Part shown: one piece after another, positions 1 through 64,000 of the stretch
How the letters are laid out: the number at the start of each line of letters is the position of its first letter
How positions within the stretch are numbered: the first letter of the stretch is position 1
Source of the DNA: a virus
IMG/VR virus record: IMGVR_UViG_3300046736_000061
Location: 6,495 to 70,494 of that record
Direction: 5' to 3' (one strand)
Length of the DNA stretch: 64,000 bases
The notes under the pieces: model-generated
Database searches by the model: none
Told to the model about the DNA's origin: nothing
What the model saw: only the letters and a program-made list of their open reading frames with translations
Position numbers and translations under genes: made by a program

Positions 1-40
1 ACCCACCCTCTTAGGCGCGAAAAGCGCCGTTCTTCTTTAC

Positions 41-69
41 TGGACATAATGTCTACTTAGTGTTATATT
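41..69 (+). promoter_or_regulatory. sigma70-type promoter whose -35 lies inside a palindrome copy
   Basis: TGGACA(41-46)-17 bp-TATATT(64-69) with TG extension at 61-62. Confidence 0.55.
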
Positions 70-76
70 GAAGACA

Positions 77-144
77 TAGGCAGGTGGGTAGCTTCCAAGC
101 GTTTGCTTCCCCGCATTGAAGTTATCACCGGAATCACCTGCCTA
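77..144 (+). ncRNA. Structured leader or small RNA upstream of the sigma gene
   Basis: TAGGCAGGTG(77-86) pairs with CACCTGCCTA(135-144); inner helices GGTAGCTT/AAGTTATC, CAA/TTG, GCG/CGC; flanked by two palindrome copies. Confidence 0.4.
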
Positions 145-200
145 AACTTAACTGGACATAATGTCTACTTAACGCTTTAGCGTACGTTGCTAGACAAAAT

Positions 201-878
201 ATGAATAACGATCTCATACTCGCCCACGAACTCGCCTCTGGAAATGAAGAAGCCTTCTCTAAGTTTTATAAAGAGACTCAAGGTAAAGTGTTCGGTATTT
301 GTTATAATATTCTGCACAGCCAGGCAGATGCCGAAGATATGGTTCAAGAAGTTTTTATGGCGATTGCGAAAGGTGTTAGCAAGTATAAAGGTGATGCGAA
401 ACTTTCTACTTGGGTACATCGAGTTGCAGTTAATCAGTGTTTGATGAAACTACGATTAGCTAAACATAAATTCTGGTCAGATAAAATTGACAACGAAGAA
501 GACCACGAAGCGATTTTCAGTAAATTATGCGCAACGCCTTCTCATGATCTTAATATAGACATAAGGTCTGCAATTAAACTTCTGCCTCCTGGCTATAAAA
601 ATGTTTTACTATTGCATGACGTTGAAGGATTAGAGCATCCAGAAATAGTAAAGGTGTTAGGAATATCAGAAGGTACTTCAAAATCTCAATTACACAAAGC
701 GCGAACGAAAATGAAGAAGGTTCTTAATCGAAAAAAAAATCCGAAGGTCGCCTCTTATTTTCCTGCGCGAGCTATTTCTAAACTGATAACTGCCAGAGAA
801 TGTTCCGCTTGTAAAATACCGCGTCAATTTGGACAACTTGTTTCTTGTGGTTATTGTGGAGCAGGAGCCAATGCATAA
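201..878 (+). CDS. ECF-type RNA polymerase sigma-70 factor with C-terminal zinc ribbon
   Basis: Region 2 DAEDMVQEVF...STWVHRVAVN; region 4 LPPGYKNVLLLHDVEGLEHPEIVKVLGISEGTSKSQLHKAR; tail CSAC...CGYC. Confidence 0.93.
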   Translation: MNNDLILAHELASGNEEAFSKFYKETQGKVFGICYNILHSQADAEDMVQEVFMAIAKGVSKYKGDAKLSTWVHRVAVNQCLMKLRLAKHKFWSDKIDNEEDHEAIFSKLCATPSHDLNIDIRSAIKLLPPGYKNVLLLHDVEGLEHPEIVKVLGISEGTSKSQLHKARTKMKKVLNRKKNPKVASYFPARAISKLITARECSACKIPRQFGQLVSCGYCGAGANA

Positions 879-1053
879 ATTTGAAGACCTTACCGGCGAA
901 CAGCGACAGAATCTTTCTCTTGAAGACTTTCTCGAATACTGTCCTCCTAATGAAATATTGCATTTTCATTTTGGCACAGCCGGGAATCAGGGTAAGTGTC
1001 AAATAACAGCAGGAGAGTTAAAGTTAATTCTTGACATTGTAAAGGATTCGTAG
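871..1053 (+). CDS. Hypothetical protein
   Basis: ATG at 871 overlaps the end of the sigma gene; part of ORF 829..1053. Confidence 0.6.
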   Translation: MHKFEDLTGEQRQNLSLEDFLEYCPPNEILHFHFGTAGNQGKCQITAGELKLILDIVKDS

Positions 1054-1059
1054 TATTCT
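1031..1059 (+). promoter_or_regulatory. sigma70-type promoter
   Basis: TTGACA(1031-1036)-17 bp-TATTCT(1054-1059). Confidence 0.65.
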
Positions 1060-1089
1060 AAAAAGGCTCGGGTGTCATCGAGCGGTGTG

Positions 1090-1141
1090 ATTGGGGTTGT
1101 TGGGCTTTCCGTTATTCACCAACAACCCCAATTTAATTTTT
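1090..1141 (+). terminator. Intrinsic terminator-like hairpin
   Basis: ATTGGGGTTGTTGG(1090-1103)/CCAACAACCCCAAT(1119-1132) followed by TTAATTTTT. Confidence 0.65.
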
Positions 1142-1266: not shown

Positions 1267-1360
1267 TTGAATTTAACTAGACATAATGTCTACTTGACGA
1301 TTTATCGTTAGGCTTCAATCGTTTTCGCGGTGGTTCTCGTTAAAACCGCTAGAAATAAAA

Positions 1361-2119: not shown

Positions 2120-2173
2120 TTATTTGGGTTAGCTAGACAAAATGTCCAGTTAACCCTTTTCTTATAACGAAGT

Positions 2174-3745: not shown

Positions 3746-3775
3746 AGATAACTAGACATAATGTCTACTTAACTT

Positions 3776-4826: not shown

Positions 4827-5000
4827 ATGATTAAAGAGAACAAAGTTCGTTGTTTAAAGTGTAATGATGTGATTGAGAGCAAGTCTAGTTATGATCGCGT
4901 AACCTGTTCCTGTGGAGCGGTTAGTGTAGATGGTGGAAAACTTTATCTCAAACGTACCGGCAAGAAAGAGGATTACGAAGAGCTGTCTGTGAGAGAATAA
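4827..5000 (+). CDS. Small zinc-finger protein (57 aa, below ORF-track cutoff)
   Basis: Translated by hand: MIKENKVRCLKCNDVIESKSSYDRVTCSCGAVSVDGGKLYLKR... Confidence 0.75.
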   Translation: MIKENKVRCLKCNDVIESKSSYDRVTCSCGAVSVDGGKLYLKRTGKKEDYEELSVRE

Positions 5001-5038
5001 GTAGACATAACGTCCAGTTAAAATAAAAAGGAGATAAA

Positions 5039-5722
5039 ATGAATACGTTTACCGTTGAATTAAAGACGCCACATATAGGACAGCAAACTGTATTGGAGCA
5101 AAGAAGACGTTTTAACATAATTTGTACAGGTAGAAGATGGGGTAAGGAAGAATTAATCAATCAGTTAATTAGCGACTCTATACAAAAAGGGCACAAACGA
5201 ATATTAATAATTGCTCCGTTAAGGTTGTCTCATATCGGGTTTCAAAGAGTTAGCGATATGTTTAAGACTGCCGTAACAAGATTAAACCGCATTAATCAAG
5301 AAATAGATATCGTCAGCGGATTGCGTGTTCAATTTGCAAAGACGGAAGACTATTTAAATGTATTGCATGGTTTTCAAGGTGATAGAATTATTATAAATGA
5401 ACCTGATTATAATAAAGATATAATTGATGAAGTTATTAAACTAAGCTGTATATGTCTTACGAATTTTATGGGTGATTTTTATATTATTGGAACACAAAAA
5501 CCCGAAGGTGTTGTGAAAGGCAATAGGTTGCTAAGTGTTTTTCCCAAGCTGGCCCAAGCTACAAAAGACAATTCGGAATGGATAACTTTTCAATGCCCAA
5601 CCTCTAATAATCCATATTTTCCTCAAGAAGAACTACCTAGACAACGCGAGGATTTACTTAGCCGGTTTGGTAAATTAGGTGAGGATGTTTATAAATCAGA
5701 ATGGGAAGGGAAACTTGTATAA
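5039..5722 (+). CDS. Degenerate terminase ATPase-domain paralog lacking the nuclease domain
   Basis: Colinear with N-half of 6399..7730: HIGQ, TGRRWGKEE, IIINEP, NPYFPQEEL, EWEGKLV-stop. Confidence 0.8.
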   Translation: MNTFTVELKTPHIGQQTVLEQRRRFNIICTGRRWGKEELINQLISDSIQKGHKRILIIAPLRLSHIGFQRVSDMFKTAVTRLNRINQEIDIVSGLRVQFAKTEDYLNVLHGFQGDRIIINEPDYNKDIIDEVIKLSCICLTNFMGDFYIIGTQKPEGVVKGNRLLSVFPKLAQATKDNSEWITFQCPTSNNPYFPQEELPRQREDLLSRFGKLGEDVYKSEWEGKLV

Positions 5723-5751
5723 GTAGACATAATGTCCAGTTAGGGGATAAT

Positions 5752-7730: not shown

Positions 7731-7766
7731 GGAGAGATAGCTAGACATAATGTCTAGTTAAAAACA

Positions 7767-9483: not shown

Positions 9484-9589
9484 AATAAATTTAAAAACTT
9501 GACTTTTATTTTTTTATAGTGTATTTTATAGATTGTCCTGTATTTTATTCCTTCATTCCAAATAGACATAATGTCTAGTTAAAACGCTT

Positions 9590-10354: not shown

Positions 10355-10401
10355 ACATAAAATGACTAGACATTATGTCTAGCTAACGAGAGGAAAACAA
10401 T

Positions 10402-12082: not shown

Positions 12083-12106
12083 AATAACTGGACATAATGT
12101 CTAGCT

Positions 12107-12126
12107 AAAACAGACTCTAAAGAGTC
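12107..12126 (+). repeat. Second motif, copy 1: AACA-GACTCT-AA-AGAGTC
   Basis: Abuts palindrome copy 12096; stem identical to copy at 25541. Confidence 0.75.
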
Positions 12127-13385: not shown

Positions 13386-13871
13386 ATGAATTTCATAATG
13401 TCCTCACCTACGTTTGACGATTATCAGGATAAAATCCGAAGTCAACAAACGCAATTGTTAAGCACTAAGTTAGCAATGGAGACGTTATTAACAGCAGAGC
13501 GAGAAGATGTTGATAAACAGTTTGATGAAAAGCAAGGAAGCTGGAAACAGTTAGCGCCTTATACTGTTGCGAAAAAAGAAGAGGCTAATGCTGATCCTCG
13601 CACTCTGCACGAAACGAGAGCAGGTTCTGGTTTACGATTAAGGGATGCATATAAACAAACAGGCCACGTTGAAGAAGACGGAACTTTAGTATTTGATTAT
13701 CCAGTTGAAAAGCCTTATGCTCAAGACCATCAAGAAGGCGTTGTAGGCGAACCTTCTAAAACTGAAAAACGTTTTGATAAACCTAAGAAGTTAAAGAAAA
13801 GACGTAAGAGTATAGTTGAACAACGTAACGATAAATTAGATAGAGAATACGAAGATAGGTTTTTTAGGTAG
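13386..13871 (+). CDS. Virion morphogenesis/tail completion protein (Mu gpG-like)
   Basis: WKQLAPYTVAKK...TLHET...LR...YAQDHQEG. Confidence 0.65.
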   Translation: MNFIMSSPTFDDYQDKIRSQQTQLLSTKLAMETLLTAEREDVDKQFDEKQGSWKQLAPYTVAKKEEANADPRTLHETRAGSGLRLRDAYKQTGHVEEDGTLVFDYPVEKPYAQDHQEGVVGEPSKTEKRFDKPKKLKKRRKSIVEQRNDKLDREYEDRFFR

Positions 13872-13876
13872 ACATT

Positions 13877-14068
13877 ATGTCCAGTCAATTACAAGCACAA
13901 TTAGAACGACTATATAAACTTGAGGTAAACGTAACACTATCTTCCGATTGGGATAATCAATGGACGGTTTCGCTTGGTAATAAGTTAAATCCCGCCACAG
14001 AAACAAGCGGCCTAACCCTTGACGAAGTAGTAGAATGGCTATCGACAAAACATTTGAATAATGCCTAA
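13877..14068 (+). CDS. Hypothetical protein starting inside the palindrome
   Basis: ATG TCC AGT CAA is the right arm of copy 13876. Confidence 0.6.
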   Translation: MSSQLQAQLERLYKLEVNVTLSSDWDNQWTVSLGNKLNPATETSGLTLDEVVEWLSTKHLNNA

Positions 14069-14621: not shown

Positions 14622-15071
14622 ATGAATTTTATAGAATTAACTGCCGCAGAATTACAAAAAGTCCAAGATTTGAAAGACTCCTTTCTTATAGTAGAGTCTC
14701 AAGTTTATGGGCAAGTTTCTGATTTTAGATACCATATCGCATTTGGTGAAAATCTCGTAGAAGAATTTGAGAAGCGCGAGATTGGACGTGTCATTAAAGA
14801 TAGTGGTCGTACCATTGGCTACTGGCAAAACCTCGCCGGTAAAGGTGTTTATAAACCCAATCTTGTAAGTCTTCAAAACTATCCTGATAATGTATCGAAG
14901 ATTTTAAAGACTCGTGAAGAGGCTAGATTAACAGTTACGAGCAAGACGTGGGTAGAGATTATAGGTCTTTGTCCTTTTGATACTGAATTTAAAACAATGT
15001 TAGGTCTGAACGAAAAGACCGTTAAGGTAAGTCCGAAGCGTAAAACCGCTAAAAGCAAAACAGCAAAATAA
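14622..15071 (+). CDS. Hypothetical protein
   Basis: 149 aa, Lys-rich C-terminus. Confidence 0.65.
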   Translation: MNFIELTAAELQKVQDLKDSFLIVESQVYGQVSDFRYHIAFGENLVEEFEKREIGRVIKDSGRTIGYWQNLAGKGVYKPNLVSLQNYPDNVSKILKTREEARLTVTSKTWVEIIGLCPFDTEFKTMLGLNEKTVKVSPKRKTAKSKTAK

Positions 15072-15107
15072 CTGGACATAATGTCTACTTAGAGAGGAAA
15101 ATAAATT

Positions 15108-18089: not shown

Positions 18090-18151
18090 TCGTAAGTAGA
18101 CATAATGTCTAGTTAAAAATCCACACGCGGGACTTCCCCGCTAAAACGGAA

Positions 18152-20673: not shown

Positions 20674-20703
20674 CTAGACATAATGTCCAGCTAAGTTAAA
20701 TAT

Positions 20704-46296: not shown

Positions 46297-46320
46297 ATTT
46301 TAACTGGACGTTATGTCTAC

Positions 46321-47301: not shown

Positions 47302-47322
47302 TTAACTAGACATTATGTCTGC

Positions 47323-47781: not shown

Positions 47782-47831
47782 ATTTTCTTCCTTTTTGTTT
47801 AAATGTTAATTTAAATGGACATAATGTCCAG

Positions 47832-48740: not shown

Positions 48741-48796
48741 TTTATCTCCTTTTATTTTGGAATTAAACTTGCTAACTAGACATAATGTCTACTTAA

Positions 48797-50191: not shown

Positions 50192-50281
50192 TTCCTTTCT
50201 CCTTTTTATTTTATTGAAAGCGGTGAAGCCTCTCCCCAAACTTCACCGCTTATGTTGCACCCACCCTCGATCGTTCTTTAA

Positions 50282-50563
50282 CTAGACATTTTGTCCAGTT
50301 AAAATCTTCCCTTGACCAATAAATTCCGATAATTGCTTTCCGTGTAAATGCTCATTAATAAACATTCGTTCACTTTGAATATGATTAATATCATAAGGAA
50401 TGTTTCGCCTTGTCTGACAAATCATACACATCATAAATCGACCTGTAACAAAATCAAACAATGGAATATGATTAGGTTTGATGGTTTTCTCGTCTTCGGC
50501 TTTCTCTGCGTCCATAACCGCATCTATGAAATCTGATTCTTCTAATGTATCTGTATAGCTCAT
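50282..50563 (-). CDS. Hypothetical protein
   Basis: 93 aa, CMIC; ends reading through palindrome copy 50290. Confidence 0.6.
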   Translation of the reverse strand: MSYTDTLEESDFIDAVMDAEKAEDEKTIKPNHIPLFDFVTGRFMMCMICQTRRNIPYDINHIQSERMFINEHLHGKQLSEFIGQGKILTGQNV

Positions 50564-50916: not shown

Positions 50917-51242
50917 AATTTTATTAGGGTCACTCCAGAAAGCCGATTAACTAAGTTTCCGTTGGCGCGGTTTAATTTAATTAACTGCCCCGACTTCCTA
51001 GAGTGTTAAGAAAAGATACACGGCAACAACTTGGCGCTAAAAGCTATATCTTTTCATTTTGCGGTCAACTTACTCCGCTCAGCCTAACGACTTCTATTAC
51101 CTTATTACCGTAAAGTATTTTCGGATAGAAACAACAAAGAAAACTACCAGTAGAAGTCATTCACTCGTTTACTAGACATTATGTCCAGTTAAATTCCTCT
51201 CCAACGTGGCTTAGCCATCCATATTACCTCACTATTAAATTC

Positions 51243-51263: not shown

Positions 51264-51458
51264 AGGTTCCAACCCAACCTCTAGGCTTTAATTACAAGGC
51301 GAGGAAGGCGGTTTGTTTCTGATGAATCAGTGTCTATTATTTCCACCGCTTAACAACAAGATAGACAGGTATTATTTCTTCCTCGCTCTTGCTTTAACTA
51401 GACTTAATGTCCAGTTAAACTTATTAAATTGTCAAACTCTTTCTCAACTACTAATACA

Positions 51459-51487
51459 ATTATACCACATCTAAATTCTAATGTCAA
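51459..51487 (-). promoter_or_regulatory. Consensus sigma70 promoter (leftward)
   Basis: TTGACA-17 bp-TATAAT with TG extension on - strand. Confidence 0.88.
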
Positions 51488-51503: not shown

Positions 51504-51532
51504 GTGACATTATGTGAAAAATATGCTATAAT
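51504..51532 (+). promoter_or_regulatory. sigma70 promoter (rightward, divergent)
   Basis: GTGACA-17 bp-TATAAT with TG extension; -35 inside degenerate palindrome GTGACATTATGTGA. Confidence 0.75.
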
Positions 51533-51565
51533 TATATTAATAAGTAAGGAGAATAACTAGACATA

Positions 51566-51769
51566 ATGTCCATTCAAATGAAATTTTACCATTGCGAACT
51601 TTGTACGGCGTCTTGTACGTTTGAGGCTATGCAATACTGTGCTAGTCGGGACGATAAAGAAACGCCTTGTCCTACATTACAATTACTTGAAGAAGGAAAG
51701 ATAACGGATATGCGTCCCACTGATTTTGACCCAACTTTTCCATCTGAATTTACTTATACATCATTATAA
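51566..51769 (+). CDS. Cys-rich hypothetical protein
   Basis: AAGGAG RBS; ATG in palindrome copy 51565. Confidence 0.6.
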   Translation: MSIQMKFYHCELCTASCTFEAMQYCASRDDKETPCPTLQLLEEGKITDMRPTDFDPTFPSEFTYTSL

Positions 51770-52555
51770 ATGCCAAAACTCTTCACATTTGACGGATATA
51801 AAAATATACCTTCCAAACCAGACCCGATATTTCGATTGAAGGAACTTAGTCTTAACTGGACAATACGTCTACTTGACTATCGCACGTATGCACCTGATTC
51901 AATTAACTCCTTTAAAGGCTTTGACCCAATACTACCGCTGATAAATTCATTAGATAAGTCATATAAAAATTTAATGAACTTGATTTCGTTAGATGATTTT
52001 ATTTGGGAAAAGTTAATGAAGTCCTGTAAAGATAAACAAGGCGATTATTACTGTGTTCAATTCAATCCTTTTATATTATCGGATATAAATAAATCACATT
52101 TAACATCAATCCCTTTGTCTTATAAGGAAAGAACCTATCACGTATCGCCACCTTTGTATTACGATCAATATAAAATTAAAACTTTAATTTCTAAGCCGTT
52201 TTGGGCTAAAATAGAAAAAGATATATTTGGTCATTCTACTATAATTGTAAATGAAGATGATACAGATAGTTACTTCGGATATTTGAAACCAAAGAACGAA
52301 GAACCTCAAACAATGTATCCTGTATTTGCTCAACCGTTTTTAGGGTTTCAAAAAGAATATAAAGTGCCGCCTCTTTTACATAGATGGGCGATTGATGTAA
52401 GGGAAGAAGAATTAATACGCAAATACGGATTCTCTGATAAGTATTTCGAGTCTTTATCTATCGAAGACTTCTTTGCTTTGTATGAAACGAATTTTACTAC
52501 TCAATGGAATACATTGAAGGGATTATTACATTATTGGGGGAAGATGGATATTTAA
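51770..52555 (+). CDS. Hypothetical protein
   Basis: 261 aa; degenerate internal palindrome copy 51864. Confidence 0.65.
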   Translation: MPKLFTFDGYKNIPSKPDPIFRLKELSLNWTIRLLDYRTYAPDSINSFKGFDPILPLINSLDKSYKNLMNLISLDDFIWEKLMKSCKDKQGDYYCVQFNPFILSDINKSHLTSIPLSYKERTYHVSPPLYYDQYKIKTLISKPFWAKIEKDIFGHSTIIVNEDDTDSYFGYLKPKNEEPQTMYPVFAQPFLGFQKEYKVPPLLHRWAIDVREEELIRKYGFSDKYFESLSIEDFFALYETNFTTQWNTLKGLLHYWGKMDI

Positions 52556-52595
52556 TTAATTTACCCTTTTAACTAGACATTATGTCCACTCACAT

Positions 52596-53312
52596 ATGAA
52601 GTACATGGGAAGCAAGGCAAGATTTGCAAAAGAAATACTTGCTATTACATTAAAAGATAGGACAGAAGGCCAATACTATGTTGAGCCTTTTGTTGGTGGT
52701 TGTAATATTATCGACAAGGTAGATGGTTTAAGAATAGGCGCTGATGTAAATAAATACTTAATCGCTATGTGGCAAAAGCTACAGTCTGGTTGGATTCCAG
52801 AATTAGAAATTAGCCAAGAAGATTATAACGAAGTTTTTCAAGACTATAAAAACAAGACCGATATTTTCCCTGATTATTATAAAGGCTATATTGGATTTAG
52901 CGGAAGTTATAATGGAAGATTTTTTGCAGGATATAGTGGGGAAGTTTTAACTAAGACTGGCATAATACGAAACTATACAGCAGAGTCTTGCCGTAGTATT
53001 ATACAGCAAGTCCCTTTGATTCAAGGCATAGATTTTCAGTGTTGTGATTTTCGGTCTTTAGTAATACCGCGTAACTCAATTATTTACTGCGACATCCCTT
53101 ATCAAGATAGCACTAAATACGAAAAAGATTTCCCACATAAATATTTTTGGAAGTGGTGTATTAAACAAAAAAGATTGGGGCATCAAATATTCGTTTCCGA
53201 ATACTCTGCCCCTTCAGATTTTACTTGTGTATGGGAAACAAAAACGGTAAGTCAAATAACTCGAACGGTGAAAATGAACTATAATACAGAGAGATTGTTT
53301 ACGTTAATTTAA
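52596..53312 (+). CDS. D12-class (Dam-like) DNA adenine methyltransferase
   Basis: YMGSK, YYVEPFVGG, IYCDIPY, FVSEY. Confidence 0.88.
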   Translation: MKYMGSKARFAKEILAITLKDRTEGQYYVEPFVGGCNIIDKVDGLRIGADVNKYLIAMWQKLQSGWIPELEISQEDYNEVFQDYKNKTDIFPDYYKGYIGFSGSYNGRFFAGYSGEVLTKTGIIRNYTAESCRSIIQQVPLIQGIDFQCCDFRSLVIPRNSIIYCDIPYQDSTKYEKDFPHKYFWKWCIKQKRLGHQIFVSEYSAPSDFTCVWETKTVSQITRTVKMNYNTERLFTLI

Positions 53313-53329
53313 GTAGACATTATGTCTAG

Positions 53330-53950
53330 CTATAATCCGATCGCCGCCGCAATTCCTACTCCTATCAATACATCACCAATCTTAGATAGAATACCTTTCT
53401 TTTTCGCTTTCTTAAGTTCTACAATTTCCTTATCCTTCAAAGCAATAATATTCTCGTAGGTTTTAAAAATCTCTTGATCTTTTTCGGTTACTGCTTTTAG
53501 CAAATTAACGGAGTTTTGATTCTCTGCATTAATATCCTTATGGACTTGAATGACCGATTTAAAATCTTCGGCTTGCGCTCGTAAGGCTTTAATCACATCA
53601 TCTTGAGCCTTGATAAGTAATCTACTAGCCTCTACTTCCCTTGCCGCCTTAGCACACAAATCGTCTGTAACGTCTCGGGATAGTGGAAAGGTACTAGGGG
53701 TAGAGTAATAATTTACGGCGTCTGTAACAGGCGTTTCTGCGTCTGTAACAGGCACTCTAGGGGCTATGGCTACTCTGTTTTTAGCGGCATTGGGCCGGTG
53801 GGACGTTGTAGAGTTCGCAGAGTTTGTTTCGGAGTTCGTCTTTTGACATTGGACTGGTATCGCCCATAATGCGATTATAAGCGTCAGTAGCGGTAGATAA
53901 AGATTTGTCGGTTGCGAGAACCTTTTCACTTGAAATTGTAAGTAACGCAT
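53330..53950 (-). CDS. Putative o-spanin-like/exported coiled-coil protein
   Basis: Signal-like LPLLTLIIALWAIPVQC; overlaps upstream gene; hydrophobic C-terminus. Confidence 0.5.
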   Translation of the reverse strand: MRYLQFQVKRFSQPTNLYLPLLTLIIALWAIPVQCQKTNSETNSANSTTSHRPNAAKNRVAIAPRVPVTDAETPVTDAVNYYSTPSTFPLSRDVTDDLCAKAAREVEASRLLIKAQDDVIKALRAQAEDFKSVIQVHKDINAENQNSVNLLKAVTEKDQEIFKTYENIIALKDKEIVELKKAKKKGILSKIGDVLIGVGIAAAIGL

Positions 53951-54212: not shown

Positions 54213-54245
54213 TTGTTCCTCCTTTTAAGTGGACATAATGTCTAG

Positions 54246-55355
54246 TTAAGCTCTCCGAACTACACTAAATCCCGCGGCTTCCCATTGAGCAATTTTCTCG
54301 GGAGTAAACTCTTCCACAGAAATACTATTAGTAGGTGTGGCATTTGCCACTACCATTGTATTGGTTCTAATGCGCCCAAGTATCCACTTTACCCACGGTA
54401 CAACTTTAATTGCTACAAAGTGATAGACAACCCATGTAGCAATACCGCCTAAGACAATCCAAAAAAGAATACTCCAAGTTTTATTGGATATTCCTAATGT
54501 TTGTGCTTGCTGTGCTTTTTCAATAACCACTTCTGTACCACCAACGGCTGTAAAAGCGGCAACTACTTTTTGCCACAAAGGAGCAAAAAACCCCTTAGGC
54601 TTTTCTTCTGTTAAAGGCGCTTCCTTCTCGATGATAACCTTATCAACTGTAGGTGTTACAGCCGGTGGCGGAATTAACGAATTCTCAACATCGTCCAACG
54701 GAATGTCAACAGGTTGCCCCGATACAAAATTCGCTATTGCGTCTTCGTGAAACGCCTCTGCTTCTGCTAAAATTTTCTTGCAATCCACAGCGGCAAAGTC
54801 TTTTTTACCATTAAAGATTTTTGTATCGTATGAATTAGATTTGTAATCAGCACCATTATAGCCTTTAGCAAAAGCGGCGCAATCTTTCAAAGTTCCGCGT
54901 TTCAATTCGTCGTCTAAGCCACGATGTTTCACAAGACGGCAGAAAGCTATCAGTTGATTATTCTCTCCCTCTTTAAGAAAGTTTACAAAATCGTGAACGT
55001 TATCAAAACCCGCCTCTTCGTGAGTGAAGCCCATCGGTTGAAACTTACCCCAAGAAGTTGCTAAGAGCGCCGCTGTAGGGTCTACACGAAAGGCAATACT
55101 AAATTCGGGATAGCCGTGTTTTTTGCTTCTTTGAATTGAATAAGGGTAAGAAATTTGAGGATGGCTAGTATCGTATTTACCACCGGTAAACGATCGAAAT
55201 TTATGGCCTTCAAACCGTATTTTAATCCGTCCGTCTGATAAAAATCCGTCCCCTGCACTTTCAGTACGAGCGACCGATTTCATAATAGGAACGCCGCAAC
55301 CCAATTCATTCGCCGCCCAACAATAACCTGCATCGGTCAATTTTTTATTCGTCAT
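54246..55355 (-). CDS. Endolysin, DUF3380-type N-acetylmuramidase with C-terminal TM
   Basis: ESAGDGF, RFEGHKF, SWGKFQPMGF, FAKGYNG..Y..NSYD. Confidence 0.9.
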   Translation of the reverse strand: MTNKKLTDAGYCWAANELGCGVPIMKSVARTESAGDGFLSDGRIKIRFEGHKFRSFTGGKYDTSHPQISYPYSIQRSKKHGYPEFSIAFRVDPTAALLATSWGKFQPMGFTHEEAGFDNVHDFVNFLKEGENNQLIAFCRLVKHRGLDDELKRGTLKDCAAFAKGYNGADYKSNSYDTKIFNGKKDFAAVDCKKILAEAEAFHEDAIANFVSGQPVDIPLDDVENSLIPPPAVTPTVDKVIIEKEAPLTEEKPKGFFAPLWQKVVAAFTAVGGTEVVIEKAQQAQTLGISNKTWSILFWIVLGGIATWVVYHFVAIKVVPWVKWILGRIRTNTMVVANATPTNSISVEEFTPEKIAQWEAAGFSVVRRA

Positions 55356-55403
55356 ATATTAATTCTCTCTTAATTTTAAGTTTTAAGTAGACATTATGTC
55401 TAG

Positions 55404-55778
55404 CTATCCGTCTCGTAGATTTTTCACGATTTGATTAAAATTCTGATGCGTACAAGGATTGACTATAAAGTAATCCTCAATCTTTGTCAAGAATTTAGGC
55501 GTTTTGGCATTTACTTGACTAGGGGTAAATCTTAATAATCGCCAACCTTCAATAGCTAAACGATTGTATTTTTCCATATCACGGATAAATCTATTAGATT
55601 TTTGATGTCCGAATCCTTCAATTTCGATTGCTAACTTACAGCAGATGACCGCTATGTCAAATTCCCATCTACGTTGTCCACATAAAAACATATGATCGGG
55701 AATAAATAAAATTCCTTGACGTGCGAATCGTTTATTTATTATTTCGAGAACTTCGGGGTATTGTGTTTGAGTGGGCAT
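55404..55778 (-). CDS. DUF559/Vsr-like endonuclease
   Basis: RRWEFDIA...AIEIEG..H...DMEKYN...GWRLLRFT. Confidence 0.85.
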   Translation of the reverse strand: MPTQTQYPEVLEIINKRFARQGILFIPDHMFLCGQRRWEFDIAVICCKLAIEIEGFGHQKSNRFIRDMEKYNRLAIEGWRLLRFTPSQVNAKTPKFLTKIEDYFIVNPCTHQNFNQIVKNLRDG

Positions 55779-55783
55779 AATGT

Positions 55784-56098
55784 CTAGCTATTCTCTACTT
55801 CTTTCCAAAAACTACCTAAATACTTTCTCAACTTCTCATCATTGGTAGTGGTGGCAAGATAAGGAAAATCAGCTCTAGGCTCTCGAATAATATAATTCCC
55901 TGTTTCCAATACTTGCCATTGGCCTTGTGATAATTGCAGTTCTATTTCTTTCCTTTCCTTGTTAGCATAAACGTTTCGTCGAGCATTGGAATAACAGAAA
56001 TCTAAAATTTCTTGAATGTTATCTCCGTCAAATTGAATGATCTTTACCTGTTGGGGCTTCTCTTCAAAAGTTGTAATTTTATTGTATTTGATTTCCAT
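55784..56098 (-). CDS. Conserved phage hypothetical protein
   Basis: IQFDGDNIQEI...GNYIIRE. Confidence 0.65.
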   Translation of the reverse strand: MEIKYNKITTFEEKPQQVKIIQFDGDNIQEILDFCYSNARRNVYANKERKEIELQLSQGQWQVLETGNYIIREPRADFPYLATTTNDEKLRKYLGSFWKEVENS

Positions 56099-56119
56099 AA
56101 TTTTAAGTGGACATAATGT

Positions 56120-56320
56120 CTAGTTATTTTCAATTGTTAAAATAGAATATACGTTATCACGCATTTCTTGTACCACTTCTCGACGAACCATATCTAATAA
56201 CTCATCGTCAGTAGTGCTTGGCTCAATGTCATCAAATACAATGGATAAGCACTTATGTACCCATTCCGGGCCCACACCTTTCCTTATAGAGACTTCTACT
56301 TCAAACGTAAACATTGCCAT
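56120..56320 (-). CDS. Hypothetical protein
   Basis: 66 aa. Confidence 0.55.
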   Translation of the reverse strand: MAMFTFEVEVSIRKGVGPEWVHKCLSIVFDDIEPSTTDDELLDMVRREVVQEMRDNVYSILTIENN

Positions 56321-56400: not shown

Positions 56401-56649
56401 TTAACTTAATAACATTATATTCTTATTTCGCTTTTTACGCAATTCATTGATGTAGATAAGGCCGTTAGCTAAATCGAAGTTCAAAACTTTCTCGTAAAAC
56501 TGTCTGATTTTAGGCGTAACTTCGTCGCTTGTTTCGTAGCGGTGAATAGTTGTCGGGCTAATGTTGCCGATCTTGGCTAAATCTTCTTGAGTGTTATAGC
56601 CGTAAACCATTCGCAAAATTGCTAGATGTTCTCCCTTAATCTCTTCCAT
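56401..56649 (-). CDS. XRE-family HTH protein
   Basis: LAILRMVYGYNTQEDLAKIGNISPTTIHRYE. Confidence 0.82.
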   Translation of the reverse strand: MEEIKGEHLAILRMVYGYNTQEDLAKIGNISPTTIHRYETSDEVTPKIRQFYEKVLNFDLANGLIYINELRKKRNKNIMLLS

Positions 56650-56656: not shown

Positions 56657-56986
56657 TTAAATGTTATATCCCGCCCTTAAATTAATCCGCTCGTTAATTG
56701 CTTTCTTAATCATTGTTTTATTATCTGTACGAATAGCCAGCATCAAATTGTGCAAGGTATATGTACTTTTATAGTATATATGATGGGTATGCTTAATGTC
56801 AAATTTTTTAGCGTTTGAAATGATTTTATCCCCTTTGGCAGAGTTTTTGCGGTTAAGGAATGAAATGATCCGTTTAATTTTGAACGCTTTTATCTCCGGT
56901 AAAGACTTCTTTTTCACAATAGGATTTCTTTTCAGAAAGAAATTAAACGCCTTCCAGTTAGTTGTGCGAATTATTTGAGTGGACAT
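56657..56986 (-). CDS. Basic hypothetical protein starting inside palindrome
   Basis: ATG TCC ACT CAA. Confidence 0.6.
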   Translation of the reverse strand: MSTQIIRTTNWKAFNFFLKRNPIVKKKSLPEIKAFKIKRIISFLNRKNSAKGDKIISNAKKFDIKHTHHIYYKSTYTLHNLMLAIRTDNKTMIKKAINERINLRAGYNI

Positions 56987-56991
56987 AATGT

Positions 56992-57450
56992 CTAGTTAAA
57001 TTGCTCGGTCTTTCCATCAGGAAATACTATATGAATTTTCTTGTTTTGCTTTTTAGCGTAACGAACTGTTGACCATGTGCCGCTTCTTATTTTTTCTTCA
57101 AAACCATCAGGGCAAGCAATTAAAACATTTGATAAAAGCACGATGTTTTTATTTCTTTCAAGTGGAGGCTTTATGGGCATTAAATGTTCTATGTCAGATA
57201 TATCCATCGTATATTTTATTATATCAGATGGATGCCCAACTCGAATAATAGACACATTTCCTATATAAGACTTACAAAGTTTATCAAACTGTTCGTCTGC
57301 ACCTATACAACAACCGTGATGTATCGTTGAAGGATGCAGTTTGATAATTAACAATGCAACTGAAACCCTTTGTTCATTAGTCATTCCTTTACGAGTGCCG
57401 GTAAAGCCTACGGTTTCTACTTGAGCGCGTTTTAATTCTTCAATGGACAT
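56992..57450 (-). CDS. SLOG/DprA-like Rossmann-fold protein
   Basis: VGFTGTR, HHGCCIGAD, PLERN..IV, RSGTWSTVRYA. Confidence 0.8.
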   Translation of the reverse strand: MSIEELKRAQVETVGFTGTRKGMTNEQRVSVALLIIKLHPSTIHHGCCIGADEQFDKLCKSYIGNVSIIRVGHPSDIIKYTMDISDIEHLMPIKPPLERNKNIVLLSNVLIACPDGFEEKIRSGTWSTVRYAKKQNKKIHIVFPDGKTEQFN

Positions 57451-57522
57451 AATATCTAGCTATCCTCTTTCGATAAAATCTCCCACGGCAGTTTCCATGC
57501 CAATATAACTTGATTCATTTTT

Positions 57523-58002: not shown

Positions 58003-58026
58003 ACTTTAAGTAGACATAATGTCTAG

Positions 58027-58245
58027 TCATTTATTTGAAAGATAATCTTTGACTGCCCTATTCATTCCAGCTTTTACATCTTCTATGTTACTTGGATTGC
58101 TTTGCAGTATTTCATTCACTGTTTTATCTTGAGCAATACCTCTTTTCGCTAAAGATAAGATATCTCCTGTATAGTCTTTTGGTAGTGTTTTTAACAATGC
58201 GCGAGTTGTCATTGCGCCTAATGCTTGTAATTCGTTTTTAGTCAT
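58027..58245 (-). CDS. Hypothetical protein
   Basis: 72 aa. Confidence 0.6.
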   Translation of the reverse strand: MTKNELQALGAMTTRALLKTLPKDYTGDILSLAKRGIAQDKTVNEILQSNPSNIEDVKAGMNRAVKDYLSNK

Positions 58246-58872: not shown

Positions 58873-58915
58873 TATTTATGCTCCGTAGTGAAATTTAAGT
58901 AGACATTATGTCCAG

Positions 58916-59176
58916 TTAAAGATTATTATTTCTATTGGCCTTTAAGAATTTTTCTTTAGAAGGATAATAATATGTATTGTCTTCATTATCTGCGTGTTGA
59001 GGCTCTTCGCACAAAGGCCATACCATCCAGTATAAAATATGTTCGTGTTGGAATTGCTCACCATTAAAATAACTAATAGCTTTATTCATACTACCAACTT
59101 TATTTATATCTCGAATCACAAGATAATAAGTTTTATGTATAGGTAGTTTTTCTTTAATTGATAACCACATTGTCAT
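58916..59176 (-). CDS. DUF551-like protein
   Basis: WLSIKEKLP...ILYWMVWP. Confidence 0.7.
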   Translation of the reverse strand: MTMWLSIKEKLPIHKTYYLVIRDINKVGSMNKAISYFNGEQFQHEHILYWMVWPLCEEPQHADNEDNTYYYPSKEKFLKANRNNNL

Positions 59177-59209
59177 TCTTCTCCTAAGTAGACATTATGT
59201 CTAGTTATT

Positions 59210-59389: not shown

Positions 59390-59421
59390 TTAATTCTCCT
59401 TTAAACAGACATTATGTCTAG

Positions 59422-59613
59422 TTATTTTTTGTTATAAGTGAACTTACTTCTATCTTTATCAAACTGTTTCAAAATTAATTTCTTTTCACCTGTTTCAAAA
59501 TAATGCAAAATTGCATCATTCAAATCTTTTTCAAGTCCCATAAAAGACCATCCATGATACTCTCTTCTACGCTCTAATTTTGGATTTATTGTTTTTCCCA
59601 TATTATTCTGCAA
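59422..59613 (-). CDS. Hypothetical protein
   Basis: 63 aa after GGGGAG, downstream of promoter. Confidence 0.6.
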   Translation of the reverse strand: MQNNMGKTINPKLERRREYHGWSFMGLEKDLNDAILHYFETGEKKLILKQFDKDRSKFTYNKK

Positions 59614-60660: not shown

Positions 60661-61341
60661 TTAACTAGACATTATGTCTACTTGTGTTTTTAATTTAGCG
60701 GCATATAAATCAATCGTCTTTTGTGCCGCTTTAAGATTCGGCGCTTTACCGCTCTCAATCTGTCTTTCTGCTTTGGCTAATGCTACAGCAAGTTTGTTAA
60801 GACCTGTTTGATAATCTGGCGGCATTACTACTTCTTGCGCTTGCTCGATCATTTTACTAACGGCAGTTCGCATTATACCAATTGGCGACATATCTAAAGT
60901 TAATGATATAGGCTTCGTTTTCTTTTTATAATTATAATCACGTTTCGGCGCAATCTCTATCGCTCTTTCTGCGTCTTCCAGACAGATTTCTATTCTGTTT
61001 TTAATTAACCGAATAAATTTACTGTCAAACTTATAATAAGTACAGCGATATGGTCTGTCTTTACCCATCCTTCTAGCCATAGAAATAACATCAGGATTAA
61101 TCATTATAAATTCTCTTAAACACGCCCTGCCGCGGGACACTGTTTTATATGAATGGTTTTGAAATAAGACAAGTTCCCTATCAGATACGGTAAATTCTTT
61201 GGCGCTAAGTTTAGATAGTCTAAGCAGGATAACTAATAACTCTGGCGCAGAATCTAATAGTTTCCACTTATCATTCAACTCGCGTACCGTATATGCGATT
61301 GCTCTTTCAATTGCTAAGTATTTGTCAAAATCGAATTTCAT
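60661..61341 (-). CDS. Putative winged-HTH DNA-binding protein
   Basis: FTVSDRELVLFQNHSYKTVSRGRACL resembles initiator-type wHTH; last codons VDIMSS-stop are palindrome copy 60673. Confidence 0.5.
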   Translation of the reverse strand: MKFDFDKYLAIERAIAYTVRELNDKWKLLDSAPELLVILLRLSKLSAKEFTVSDRELVLFQNHSYKTVSRGRACLREFIMINPDVISMARRMGKDRPYRCTYYKFDSKFIRLIKNRIEICLEDAERAIEIAPKRDYNYKKKTKPISLTLDMSPIGIMRTAVSKMIEQAQEVVMPPDYQTGLNKLAVALAKAERQIESGKAPNLKAAQKTIDLYAAKLKTQVDIMSS

Positions 61342-61363
61342 ATATTTTAACTAGACATTATGT

Positions 61364-62047
61364 CTACTTATTCGATATTTTGTGTCGAATTTTGATAAAT
61401 TCGTCTACTGGCTTCTTAACTTCTTCTGGTATGATAAATTGAACTCCTTCCATTTTATCATATAATTCCAGAAAAATTTCAAACATAGGCAATAAATGAA
61501 GTTGCCAATGAGATAAAAAAGTATACACCGTGTCCGTTTCGTCTGTGCTGATAGGTAATTCTATTACATCCAATAGATTTTTATAGCGGTGAATTTTAGC
61601 AATATTTCTCGCACCCGCCCAATCGTTATCAGATAAGAAGCGTTTAATGGAAAACTTTTGTTGATTGTTGAGGTTAATAATAAACTTCCAATCCGCACTT
61701 ACAGTTAAATGAAGTTCCAGTACTGAAAATTTACTTAAATTTATACTGACATTCTCGTATTGTGGCAATTCTTTTTTAATTACCTTGATAATAGCCTTAG
61801 TAATAGGCTTATCTTCATATTTATCTTCGAGTAATACGGCTATCGTTTCGTAAAAGTATCTTAATCGTCTTGCGTGTGCTAAGGCGTCCGATAAAGATTT
61901 AGTGGCTTGCACTCTATAATCTTTGATTTTTCTATCAACTGGCGATGTATTTAAGTCAATACATTCTTTACAATTCATATCGCCGCCAATAAAATTATGG
62001 GCATTACAACTTTTTTCCATTTGACCTCTGAACGTTTCGGTTATCAT
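61364..62047 (-). CDS. Hypothetical protein
   Basis: 227 aa, AGGAG RBS, bounded by palindrome copies. Confidence 0.7.
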   Translation of the reverse strand: MITETFRGQMEKSCNAHNFIGGDMNCKECIDLNTSPVDRKIKDYRVQATKSLSDALAHARRLRYFYETIAVLLEDKYEDKPITKAIIKVIKKELPQYENVSINLSKFSVLELHLTVSADWKFIINLNNQQKFSIKRFLSDNDWAGARNIAKIHRYKNLLDVIELPISTDETDTVYTFLSHWQLHLLPMFEIFLELYDKMEGVQFIIPEEVKKPVDEFIKIRHKISNK

Positions 62048-62085
62048 TTTATTTTCTCCTTAATTTAAGTAGACATAATGTCTAG

Positions 62086-62280
62086 TTATTTGAATCCCGC
62101 CTCTCGTAGTAATCTATTTAATTCGCCTACGAACTCATTAAAAGCGTGTCCGTTATTTGAGATAAAGTGATCGCGTTTATCGTCAGGTACAAGGTTTAAT
62201 AACCAGCCGAGTTCTGTATCTAATCGCAACGCTTCTTCTGGTGTCATTTCAACCGCAATTTTTGTAGACGTTCCTTTCAT
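62086..62280 (-). CDS. Hypothetical protein
   Basis: 64 aa, AGGAG RBS, bounded by palindrome copies. Confidence 0.7.
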   Translation of the reverse strand: MKGTSTKIAVEMTPEEALRLDTELGWLLNLVPDDKRDHFISNNGHAFNEFVGELNRLLREAGFK

Positions 62281-62311
62281 TTTATTCTCCTGTTTTAAGT
62301 GGACATAATGT

Positions 62312-62923
62312 CTAGTTATTTCTTTCTATCCAATAACCTTCTTTTACGTTACGGTTCGGATAAATCGCTTCTGCCCAATAATGAACACGTCCGATATTAG
62401 AAACGAATTGATTATCGAATTGATCGACCTTATAAAGCTGTATAACTTCCCCTGCGTGTTCGCACATTGCTTTCATTGTTAAACTATTAATCGCGATAGT
62501 GTCAAAAAGTTTATATCCTTTATTGCGTAGCTTGGCACATAGCAAGGCATAGTTTCGAGCGTCTTCTGGTTTGTCAATCGAATAACGATAAGCAAACATT
62601 TTCGCTTCCTCAAATGGTTCGTTTTCAAAACTAGCGAACGCGCAATATAAAAGTGAATTACCGCAATTTTTACAATTGCAATAAATTTCTCTAATGTGAT
62701 TTGTGCCGTGATCTTCGTTATTACCACAAGCGGGACAGTAATACGGGCGCATTTTGTATTGTCGATTATTTGTGCAACTATCTTCGTGTCTTACTCCACC
62801 GTCTGAAATAACCGTACATTTTGAACAGTCTATACATAAAACCGTTCCTTCTGCCAGTAAATGAGATTTATCATAACCTCGTAACAGTGCCGTTTTCAAT
62901 TCGTCTTGTTTGTTGTATGTCAT
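62312..62923 (-). CDS. Zinc-binding hypothetical protein
   Basis: CIDCSKC, CPACG, CKNCG; bounded by palindrome copies. Confidence 0.7.
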   Translation of the reverse strand: MTYNKQDELKTALLRGYDKSHLLAEGTVLCIDCSKCTVISDGGVRHEDSCTNNRQYKMRPYYCPACGNNEDHGTNHIREIYCNCKNCGNSLLYCAFASFENEPFEEAKMFAYRYSIDKPEDARNYALLCAKLRNKGYKLFDTIAINSLTMKAMCEHAGEVIQLYKVDQFDNQFVSNIGRVHYWAEAIYPNRNVKEGYWIERNN

Positions 62924-62961
62924 TTTGTTTCTCCTTAAAAATAGGTGGACATTATGTCTAG

Positions 62962-63963
62962 TTAAACAGACCTTACATCAAATGCTTTTAACCCATTAAT
63001 AGGCCATTCATTACAACGAACGGTCTTTTTATGCGGTTCTCCAAACGGTATTTCGTCGCGATTTGTATATAGCTTTTTACTATACAGACCGGAAAACTCC
63101 ATTCTACCAAACGCTTTGCTACTTTCTATACGAACATAGTAATAACAAGCGCCGCCAAGTTTTGAATGTGAAGAGATTTTCACTCCTACTAATTGGGGAT
63201 GATAAGAAAATGGTTCAGAAGATATAGTCTTTTCTAATTCTAATTGTTTATTTTTCAATTCTATCTCTTTCTTTTCTCTTTCAGTTTGAGATTCTTTTGC
63301 TTTTTCGTCGCGTTCTAAGTCTTCATATTTTTGCGCTAACCTTAATTCCATTAATTGATCTTCGTCTATAAATAACATAGCACAAGCCAACGCCTCAAAA
63401 TCGCATCCGAATATAGCGCGAACGTTTAAATCAAGATAAATACATAGGCCAAAATACGGATGATTTACTTTATACAAACCGGCATTGCCCCAAAAATCAC
63501 ATAATTTTATTGCTTCGGCCTTCTTTTGCAAGTCTGTAAGCACATCCTGATAATTTTCTTTAGTGATAGGTTTCATAATTTGAAACGAATCACCGCGAGA
63601 ATCTCGATAAAATCGCCAATCTGTATTCTTGATAAGCCTTGCGAGTGCGTATTTTTTCTTTACGTCGATAGCAGAATAGAGAATTTCAATTGATCCATTC
63701 TGATTTTGGATGACGTTTTTATAACCGGCTATGCGCGGGGCGTCGATTTTTCCAAATTCACCGTGAATAGTTAAACAAGTTTTGTAGTGATAGATGGGAA
63801 TTGTGCAAGCAATTTGACTAATTAACTCGCTTGTCACATCGCCGTTTTCGATTGAATGAATAACAGATTGCGGTATGATTTTGCTACTGCGATTAATTTT
63901 CTTAGGTGTATCATACCGGCCTATCGGTGTATTTATTAATGTTTCTAATTTTTCGATTGCCAT
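62962..63963 (-). CDS. Hypothetical protein
   Basis: 333 aa, GGAG RBS, bounded by palindrome copies. Confidence 0.75.
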   Translation of the reverse strand: MAIEKLETLINTPIGRYDTPKKINRSSKIIPQSVIHSIENGDVTSELISQIACTIPIYHYKTCLTIHGEFGKIDAPRIAGYKNVIQNQNGSIEILYSAIDVKKKYALARLIKNTDWRFYRDSRGDSFQIMKPITKENYQDVLTDLQKKAEAIKLCDFWGNAGLYKVNHPYFGLCIYLDLNVRAIFGCDFEALACAMLFIDEDQLMELRLAQKYEDLERDEKAKESQTEREKKEIELKNKQLELEKTISSEPFSYHPQLVGVKISSHSKLGGACYYYVRIESSKAFGRMEFSGLYSKKLYTNRDEIPFGEPHKKTVRCNEWPINGLKAFDVRSV

Positions 63964-64000
63964 TTTATTTTCTCCAAAAATATTTAAGTGGACATTATGT

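Follow-up and report, generated by a model that had tools for sequence, protein, structure and literature searches.

The genome of an uncultured phage of about 70 kb is punctuated at its gene boundaries by 66 copies of one 23-bp quasi-palindrome, and these copies probably serve as sites that a protein recognizes in double-stranded DNA. The window analyzed here is the whole stretch of 64,000 nucleotides corresponding to bases 6495–70494 of the 70,494-bp IMG/VR record IMGVR_UViG_3300046736_000061, and coordinates refer to it unless the genome is named. An initial annotation of the window had reported about 60 copies, some 20 in the structural arm and 40 in the early arm, and had proposed that they act (a) as sites for a dimeric DNA-binding protein, (b) as crossover sites for gene cassettes, or (c) as transcript-processing or translation-coupling signals. 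The array itself was readily recovered. The window contains 45 exact matches to the 11-bp core, GACATNATGTC, whereas 100 dinucleotide-preserving shuffles predict 0.06. A 23-bp position weight matrix (PWM) built from the exact-core sites and scanned over the whole record returned 66 sites, 58 of them in the window (Table 1), with scores of 16.6–37.4; no position scored between 8 and 16.6, and the maximum in five mononucleotide shuffles was 5.8. The consensus, TAASTRGACATWATGTCYASTTA, is the one previously claimed, and its information content is far above that needed for uniqueness in a 70-kb genome. The distribution also agrees with the earlier description: 20 copies lie up to position 33,300 and 38 beyond it, 16 copies between 53.3 and 63 kb bracket single genes or gene pairs in a cassette-like manner, and early, middle, and late modules all contain copies, as do regions transcribed in either direction. 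The copies are spaced more evenly than expected at random (coefficient of variation [CV] 0.73, P = 0.005). A pattern scan of IMG/VR found the motif once in one other contig.

Copies are tightly tied to gene ends. Genes were our own longest-open-reading-frame (ORF) calls, and the junction and placement statistics therefore carry gene-calling error. Intergenic gaps of at least 22 nt hold a copy in 46 of 56 cases, and those of 22–80 nt in 28 of 31; none of the 21 overlapping gene junctions does. The typical site follows directly on the upstream stop codon and precedes the next ribosome-binding site. Among the 46 copies whose upstream frame is open for at least 50 codons, 30 contain the stop codon of the upstream ORF, at motif position 0 in 20 copies (TAA 16, TAG 3, TGA 1), at position 4 in six (TAG), and at positions 10–21 in four. 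The motif's own ATG is the start codon of the next gene in six cases, and there the TTA of the 3′ arm is changed to TCA or TGA, which removes the in-frame stop. The 3′ half together with the following A reads ATG TCY AST TAA, a mini-ORF. Twenty genes start 0–12 nt downstream of a copy, 17 of them without a Shine–Dalgarno (SD)-like 4-mer. Eight copy centers, by comparison, lie deep inside ORFs, including two strong ones (43431 and 45675). As a side observation, genes that start 4–10 nt after a copy without a recognizable SD sequence are found at 9590, 20704, 25642, 27415, and 30175, and the large genes at these starts are tape-measure, tail, and scaffold-like genes; either their starts are miscalled or their translation depends on coupling or reinitiation.

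We asked how the dyad symmetry is maintained by orienting all 66 copies by transcription direction and counting the pairs of the obvious stem against shuffles. Paired cells amounted to 83.2% versus 86.4 ± 0.7 in shuffles, and compensatory cells were depleted (6 versus 18.0 ± 2.9); for both counts, 500 of 500 shuffles were at least as high. Position ±8 is anti-palindromic, being paired in 15 of 66 copies versus 30.8 ± 3.6, a value reached by none of 5,000 shuffles. The types at this position are CC (28), GG (15), CG (14), GC (1), and others (8), so that one C-type half is combined with one G-type half at 43 sites versus 27.5 expected (p = 2e-5). This asymmetry gives most copies a direction, which neighbors tend to share in runs of CC or GG and which does not follow GC skew. 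The C at position 3, present in 47 of 66 copies, reflects an orientation bias only. On the sense strand, position ±6 shows 26 A·C mismatches versus 11 G·U pairs. The sense RNA 23-mer has a mean minimum free energy of −4.45 kcal/mol versus −5.37 kcal/mol for the antisense (a perfect palindrome would reach −10.2), and the sense fold is the weaker of the two in 41 copies and the stronger in 21 (p = 0.011). The stem is not selected and, if anything, is avoided in mRNA. A palindrome that is kept, but not as a hairpin, speaks for recognition of duplex DNA by a dyad-symmetric protein. Model (c), in its hairpin form, is accordingly disfavored by the depleted covariation, the unpaired position ±8, and the weak sense hairpins.

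Comparison with a relative extended these observations. A capsid search retrieved a complete record of 49,268 bp and 48% G+C (hereafter G001), whose capsid, portal, and large terminase subunit (TerL) are 54–57% identical to those of the phage (capsid, 54%). Profile searches with capsid and portal found only G001, its fragment L007, and a third sequence, L017. G001 carries a motif of its own, AGGGCTCA-NNN-TGAGCCCT, with 47 copies at up to two mismatches and 53 at up to three, and neither motif is present in the other genome. Of the 14 intervals between orthologous structural genes, 13 hold copies in the phage and 10 in G001, where three further copies lie just inside called ORFs. The presence of an unrelated palindrome at syntenic junctions implies a factor acting in trans. 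The intragenic copies of G001 include three in the tape-measure gene and others in tail genes, and its array is spaced with a CV of 0.50 and a maximum gap of 1942 bp, more evenly than any of 5,000 random sets. The G001 motif likewise shows no excess covariation. L017 is a 2.9-kb fragment, 82% identical to G001 over 2.8 kb, that has the same four copies; the motif arms are identical at 61 of 64 positions versus 81.8% overall (p = 0.0015), and on this comparison the arms are under purifying selection. The two sequences are collinear across the four copies, with only 1–4-nt indels, confined to the adjoining spacers, and with no gene gained or lost. From these alignments, the array appears to be a selected trait of the lineage, and the motif sequence appears to be set by something that differs between phages. 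Model (b) found no support, given this collinearity and the lack of an integrase or recombinase among 94 (Pfam) or 89 (PHROGs) ORFs. In a Pfam search of 43 G001 ORFs, a sigma factor, helicase, and polymerase were not recognized; G001 does encode a 149-aa HTH_Tnp_1-like protein that is absent from the phage.

The phage has no close cultured relative. The record has a 127-bp direct terminal repeat and a G+C content of 38%, and PHROGs and Pfam matches identify structural genes (terminase, portal, major capsid, tape measure, and tail genes), an extracytoplasmic function (ECF)-like sigma factor, a replication and nucleotide module (helicase, Erf, SSB, exonucleases, ThyX, and MazG), two DNA methyltransferases, and an endolysin. 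Integrase, recombinase, transposase, HUH/RAYT (Y1), and ParAB/partition genes were absent from the 94 ORFs searched with Pfam, as were integrase, recombinase, and partition genes from the 89 searched with PHROGs; neither resource recognized ParB, condensin-like, or primase genes. As no integrase, recombinase, or partition gene was found, the phage looks lytic. The window contains no tRNA and no Rfam match at the gathering score. Megablast against cultured phages gave no match to the phage, the closest tblastn matches were distant (TerL at most about 34% identity, capsid at most 25%), and no prophage relative was found in 185,579 species genomes.

Nor does the motif form a repeat in the bacterial genomes searched. 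A 21-mer pattern occurred in 24 of 32.2 million bacterial contigs, once in each except for one contig with two, and five of the genomes concerned, scanned in full, held 1–4 loose matches each, near the level of reversed-pattern controls (0–2). The host-genome scan that had been suggested as a check brought up no sign of a host repeat or host regulon. We reject an origin from a host repeat or host regulator because the motif is not repeated in bacterial genomes, in a collection that may not include the true host. A 26-bp identity in a contig of a Tissierellaceae metagenome-assembled genome (L024) is not a CRISPR spacer and lies within chance, given 24 matches and about 130 oriented phage copies. 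Separately, ten contigs from Arcicella and other Cytophagales (L019, L022, L023, L026, L027, L028, L032, L033, L035, and L041) carry the perfect palindrome AAGTGGACATWATGTCCACTT, extended by complementary flanks (ttctcc...ggagaa) and often then by a partial extra arm; it is a conserved element of those bacteria, unrelated in copy number to the phage array.

The half-site TRGACA resembles a −35 element. Strong sigma-70-type promoters are few in this genome, and its operons are long. The three best promoters with an extended TG element comprise two in the window (Table 1) and one at genome position 1212 (−); all three have a motif copy in the leader, just before the first ribosome-binding site, centered at about +52 from the start in the last case and at the distances given in Table 1 in the other two. 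The −35 element of the rightward promoter falls in a degenerate motif-like core, GACATTATGTG, one mismatch from the 11-bp core. Two copies supply the −35 element of predicted TG-extended promoters upstream of the sigma-factor gene. Across the array, a −10-like hexamer matching at least 4 of 6 positions at 16–18 bp follows 13 of 66 copies (background, 9%), and one matching at least 5 of 6 at promoter spacing follows 4 of 66 (background, 2%). With so few −10 partners and with many genes starting 3–12 nt after a copy, we rejected promoter activity as the general function and retain it, as a prediction, for the two copies upstream of the sigma-factor gene only. A reading as ECF-sigma promoters was likewise rejected, as the AAC-to-GTC spacing within the motif is too short for the ECF consensus as generally known.

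At 51459–51532, near-consensus sigma-70 promoters lie back to back, and the leftward one is followed by a noncoding leader of about 540 nt (50916–51452) that is relatively G+C-rich and has two motif copies in it. This arrangement is reminiscent of a genetic switch; alternatively, an RNA may be encoded in the leader. At genome 4.6–6.7 kb (L011 4635–6600 plus window 1–200), about 2 kb with only small doubtful ORFs contains six motif copies and eight terminator-like hairpins versus 1.6 expected, including GGCCGCGAAAAGCGGCC and GGCGCGAAAAGCGCC. Lying directly upstream of the sigma-factor gene, it may be a regulatory or origin region.

The phage has five non-structural proteins in common with G001: an 82-aa HTH_3 protein (43% identity), a 124-aa DUF559/Vsr-like protein (44%), and proteins of 261 aa (25–28%), 545 aa (25%), and 251 aa (39%). 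The 82-aa protein is the only Xre-type helix-turn-helix (HTH) protein of the phage; its gene belongs to the early operon and lies about 3 kb away from that of the D12 methyltransferase. Its AlphaFold2 model is confident (predicted local distance difference test [pLDDT], 89.6), and the top Foldseek folds are XRE regulators and restriction–modification (R-M) controller proteins, at E-values of 0.013–0.1 that are weak (none ≤0.001) and TM-scores of about 0.55–0.6; it is about 30% identical to C.Esp1396I. A profile search with the HTH protein found only G001, its tblastn search in cultured phages found nothing, PDB sequence searches with four proteins gave no matches, and an Atlas search with the 545-aa protein gave low-score leads only. 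On the strength of fold and conservation, we put the HTH protein forward tentatively as the protein that may bind the motif.

The 261-aa protein belongs to an island (51566–53312) transcribed opposite to its surroundings, which also encodes a Cys-rich 67-aa protein and a D12-class N6-adenine methyltransferase and is possibly an orphan or cryptic R-M-like module. The fold of the 261-aa protein is unassigned (AlphaFold2 model poor, pLDDT 52.6), its family has three members including itself in a set of 5.8 billion proteins, and its identity to the G001 homolog is 25% by BLASTP and 28% by MAFFT. Elsewhere, an NTP pyrophosphohydrolase, a short methyltransferase-like ORF, MazG, and a ThyX-like protein (33522–34353, 38825–39241, and 46321–47271) together hint at modified nucleotides in the phage DNA. 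A 227-aa ORF (5039–5722) is 29% identical to the N-terminal half of the G001 TerL; this extra TerL-like ORF lies upstream of the phage's own full-length TerL (6399–7730), with motif copies on either side of it, at 4998 and 5720.

Table 1. Positions of the repeat copies and associated features in the 64,000-nt window (23 bp per copy).
Feature	Position	Strand	PWM score	Remarks
motif copy	37..59	.	31.6	its TGGACA also serves as −35 of a predicted promoter ahead of the sigma-factor gene
motif copy	149..171	.	36.8	
ECF-like sigma-factor gene	201..878	+		preceded by two motif copies; PHROGs, Pfam
motif copy	1274..1296	.	34.2	
motif copy	2130..2152	.	28.0	
motif copy	3749..3771	.	37.2	
motif copy	4998..5020	.	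29.8	
motif copy	5720..5742	.	36.8	
motif copy	7738..7760	.	36.1	
motif copy	9559..9581	.	31.0	
motif copy	10363..10385	.	33.5	
motif copy	12085..12107	.	35.7	
motif copy	13865..13887	.	32.5	own ATG is start of next ORF
motif copy	15069..15091	.	36.8	
motif copy	18093..18115	.	37.2	
motif copy	20671..20693	.	35.7	
weak motif copy	22196..22218	.	22.0	inside tape-measure gene
motif copy	25554..25576	.	33.8	
motif copy	25609..25631	.	35.7	
motif copy	27385..27407	.	35.5	
motif copy	30148..30170	.	37.2	
motif copy	33370..33392	.	26.8	adjoins terminator of convergent arms
motif copy	33824..33846	.	36.8	
motif copy	34363..34385	.	30.5	
motif copy	36659..36681	.	29.1	
motif copy	38280..38302	.	25.6	
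motif copy	39250..39272	.	37.4	
motif copy	39956..39978	.	27.8	
motif copy	41471..41493	.	34.2	own ATG is start of next ORF
motif copy	42891..42913	.	32.5	
strong motif copy	43431..43453	.	34.5	inside 196-aa ORF
strong motif copy	45675..45697	.	33.4	inside 157-aa ORF
motif copy	46301..46323	.	29.8	
motif copy	47303..47325	.	33.4	
motif copy	47812..47834	.	33.1	
motif copy	48773..48795	.	37.2	
weak motif copy	49641..49663	.	21.0	inside 480-aa ORF
motif copy	50279..50301	.	29.7	
motif copy	51169..51191	.	32.2	in long leader of leftward operon
motif copy	51395..51417	.	29.7	center about +46 from start of leftward promoter
sigma-70-type promoter (predicted)	51459..51487	-		TTGACA-17-TATAAT with TG, 12/12; leftward operon
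sigma-70-type promoter (predicted)	51504..51532	+		GTGACA-17-TATAAT with TG, 11/12
motif copy	51554..51576	.	30.9	center about +26 from start of rightward promoter
261-aa protein	51770..52555	+		in oppositely oriented island; G001 homolog likewise inverted
weak motif copy	51853..51875	.	19.1	inside 261-aa ORF
motif copy	52570..52592	.	34.2	
motif copy	53310..53332	.	35.5	two convergent genes end in its two ends
motif copy	54226..54248	.	36.8	
motif copy	55384..55406	.	35.5	
124-aa DUF559/Vsr-like nuclease-fold protein	55404..55778	-		second conserved candidate; 44% identical to G001 ortholog
motif copy	55768..55790	.	25.5	
motif copy	56104..56126	.	36.8	
82-aa Xre-type HTH protein, candidate binder	56401..56649	-		Pfam HTH_3, E 3.2e-5; 43% identical to G001 ortholog (BLASTP)
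motif copy	56976..56998	.	34.2	
weakest motif copy	57440..57462	.	16.6	
motif copy	58007..58029	.	34.6	
motif copy	58896..58918	.	36.8	
motif copy	59185..59207	.	37.2	
motif copy	59402..59424	.	30.2	
motif copy	60662..60684	.	34.2	
motif copy	61348..61370	.	37.2	
motif copy	62066..62088	.	37.2	
motif copy	62296..62318	.	36.8	
motif copy	62942..62964	.	35.1	

The explanation that we favor, at somewhat under an even chance for the whole, is that the repeats are genome-wide duplex operators for a dyad-symmetric phage protein acting on transcription, with the HTH protein as the leading candidate for the binder. A sequence-specific, phage-encoded protein would recognize the double-stranded repeats, which would sit wherever 23 fixed base pairs are affordable, that is, in nearly every intergenic gap and occasionally inside a gene. 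Once bound, the protein would, like the proteins of stoperator systems, block or silence transcription along operons, and at a few sites it may occlude promoters, including those ahead of the sigma-factor gene. The motif and the Xre/controller-like protein would have diverged together in the related phage. Of the initial models, (a) comes out ahead, supported by the dyad symmetry without covariation, the motif replacement, the HTH protein common to both phages, and the intragenic copies, the strong ones among which imply that sites are kept where punctuation of gene expression makes no sense; the binding itself is predicted from sequence patterns. Few strong promoters serving long operons suggest that a bound protein would act mainly on transcription, which we regard as quite possible but not quite probable.

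Several points weigh against this explanation. The phage looks lytic, so stoperator-like lysogenic silencing has no obvious place. The HTH orthologs, 43% identical and differing at only a few positions of the recognition helix, would need to recognize unrelated motifs; the Foldseek E-values of the modeled HTH protein are weak. Under a simple symmetric dimer, no excess of sites combining a C-type with a G-type half would be predicted. The 17 of 20 closely following genes without an SD-like 4-mer hint at an effect on translation. Intragenic copies, together with the even spacing, would be explained no less well by a structural or replication-linked role.

Such a role would still involve duplex protein sites, but to an architectural or protective end, with the protein marking, condensing, or organizing the DNA, a regulator being titrated by copy number, or replication or recombination being served at intervals. 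We consider this unlikely but worth keeping in view. Even spacing, the 1942-bp maximum gap and retention in long structural genes in G001, and the strong intragenic copies in the phage all speak for it, and the excess information content of a motif essentially single-copy or absent in bacteria would suit a self-marker. However, gaps of 3.0–3.4 kb are tolerated among the late genes of the phage, neither ParB, condensin-like, nor primase genes were recognized by PHROGs or Pfam, and the positions of copies, immediately ahead of ribosome-binding sites and shortly after promoters, are strikingly regular. Even spacing may also partly follow gene sizes, yet it persisted against a null drawing 58 of 105 junctions (P = 0.001).

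The tight placement, with the upstream stop inside the motif in 30 of 46 cases, could instead be taken as the mark of an intercistronic stem-loop in mRNA that directs RNase processing, stabilizes transcripts, insulates ribosome-binding sites, or couples termination to reinitiation. The 20 genes starting 0–12 nt after a copy (17 lacking an SD-like 4-mer), the occurrence of the motif in 5′ leaders at the head of operons, and the mini-ORF in the 3′ half fit such a signal. What makes it rather improbable is that the stem shows anti-covariation, with A·C exceeding G·U on the sense strand (26 versus 11), that sense hairpins are weak (−4.45 kcal/mol) and weaker than the antisense, that G001 shows no excess covariation, that copies lie inside ORFs, and that no Rfam family matched; if the stem is not kept, a single-stranded signal leaves the palindrome unexplained. 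We judge it distinctly improbable that the repeats are recombination substrates or selfish elements, be it for cassette crossover between co-infecting relatives or as a mobile palindrome of the repetitive extragenic palindromic (REP) or miniature inverted-repeat transposable element (MITE) kind that has saturated its sites. Asymmetric copies in either orientation with like neighbors would be expected from copy-and-paste spread, insertions at gene ends would be tolerated because copies have stop codons at both ends, Erf, SSB, and an exonuclease are encoded, and the extra TerL-like gene (5039–5722) is flanked by copies. Set against this are the lack of integrase, transposase, HUH/RAYT, and recombinase genes in 94 ORFs, a length of 23 bp that is far below that of known MITEs, the G001/L017 collinearity over four copies with arms under apparent purifying selection, and the other gene insertions of the phage relative to G001, which are not bracketed by copies. 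The Cluster O repeats, too, are reported to take part in hardly any indels (PMC4351075).

Returning to duplex operators, a more elaborate and improbable version would make the array a lineage-specific self-address, in which a small HTH protein and a high-information palindrome co-diversify. With its action confined to phage DNA, the protein would form a polar roadblock about once per kilobase, with its direction set by position ±8, and, since the number of sites grows with replication, its titration could time the release of the sigma-factor promoters and with it the onset of late gene expression. If so, different motif–protein pairs would define regulatory immunity types in lytic phages. Finding the binder would reveal by what means a lytic phage with few promoters governs its long operons. 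The phage offers a clean case for this purpose, with a near-saturating array, a short conserved HTH protein that is easily expressed, a relative with a swapped motif set, and an asymmetric position that possibly encodes polarity. A 23-bp site absent from bacterial genomes and its small cognate protein would, if the pairing is true, also provide a useful orthogonal operator–repressor pair.

Repeated palindromes at gene boundaries have precedents of several kinds. Integron attC sites and the RNase III processing sites of T7 and SP82 early transcripts are both repeated imperfect palindromes at gene boundaries. The former require an integron integrase and adopt a single-stranded fold in which extrahelical bases are conserved, and the latter are long RNA stems; neither an integrase nor stem conservation was found here. 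REP elements are short, imperfect, high-copy extragenic palindromes that occur in either orientation and are associated with RAYT transposases (PMC8266576). They are chromosomal and act as single-stranded hairpins for a Y1 transposase, whereas the phage repeat has no such gene in its genome, shows no hairpin covariation, and is not repeated in bacteria. The C-boxes of R-M controller proteins are described as GACT-N3-AGTC, and those of C.Esp1396I have GAC/GTC about a TATA center with outer TG/CA (PMC2175313, PMC2691842). The core GAC-ATWAT-GTC similarly places GAC/GTC at ±3–5 about an AT-rich center with conserved outer bases, a resemblance of architecture only. C-boxes occur once or twice at the promoter of their own operon; the phage has 66 sites, mostly off promoters, the fourth base of each half is A rather than T, and no C-R-M operon arrangement is evident.

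Among phage repeats, stoperators of Cluster A mycobacteriophage L5 (bound by gp71) and of Streptomyces phage R4 are many sites in short intergenic spaces downstream of few promoters, at which the bound phage protein blocks elongating RNA polymerase; they are asymmetric 13-mers, read by a monomer and oriented with transcription, in temperate phages (PMC9283540, PMC10276819, PMC4351075). The array shares with them the many copies of one site in short intergenic spaces through the genome. It differs in having a 23-bp dyad, an orientation that is only a bias (28 CC versus 15 GG), and no lysogeny genes seen. Direct repeats of T1-like phages have also been likened to stoperators (PMC11447400). The Nostoc cyanophages A-1 and N-1 (65–68 kb) carry 43 and 21 copies of phage-specific intergenic motifs that are not consistently oriented with genes, and the account leaves undecided whether they are promoters or stoperators (PMC4916379). 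Here, too, tens of copies lie between ORFs and the motif differs between two related phages, but the Nostoc motifs are described as asymmetric, whereas ours is a palindrome with denser occupancy.

The initial annotation had held that established analogs differ. It had overlooked the closest analog, the palindrome array of Cluster O mycobacteriophages (PMC4351075). Phages such as Corndog have genomes of about 70 kb, without an integrase, and more than 30 copies (34 in Corndog) of the 17-bp TGTTCGG-NNN-CCGAACA, partly between and partly within genes and mostly away from promoters; the authors expected a dimeric DNA-binding protein to recognize the repeats and did not assign them a function (PMC4351075). 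The likeness is close: our phage is likewise a siphophage of about 70 kb without an integrase, in which tens of dyad-symmetric copies span the genome, many intergenic and some intragenic, and most are not at promoters (4 of 66 have a good −10). G001 shares the Cluster O design even more directly, with arms of 7–8 bp and a 3-bp spacer. The array differs in its roughly twofold density (66 per 70 kb), its 23-bp motif with a fixed center, its occupancy of 46 of 56 gaps, its ties to stop and start codons, its one anti-palindromic position, and a relative with a wholly different motif. With no detectable sequence relationship (a different motif and at most 25% capsid identity), the correspondence is one of analogy, not membership. 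In the literature searched, supplements aside, no later paper explaining the Cluster O repeats was found. The array is real and striking, and it is of a sort already described in 2015 that is itself still unexplained; should the binder be identified, the experiments that do so would probably account for the Cluster O repeats and comparable arrays as well.

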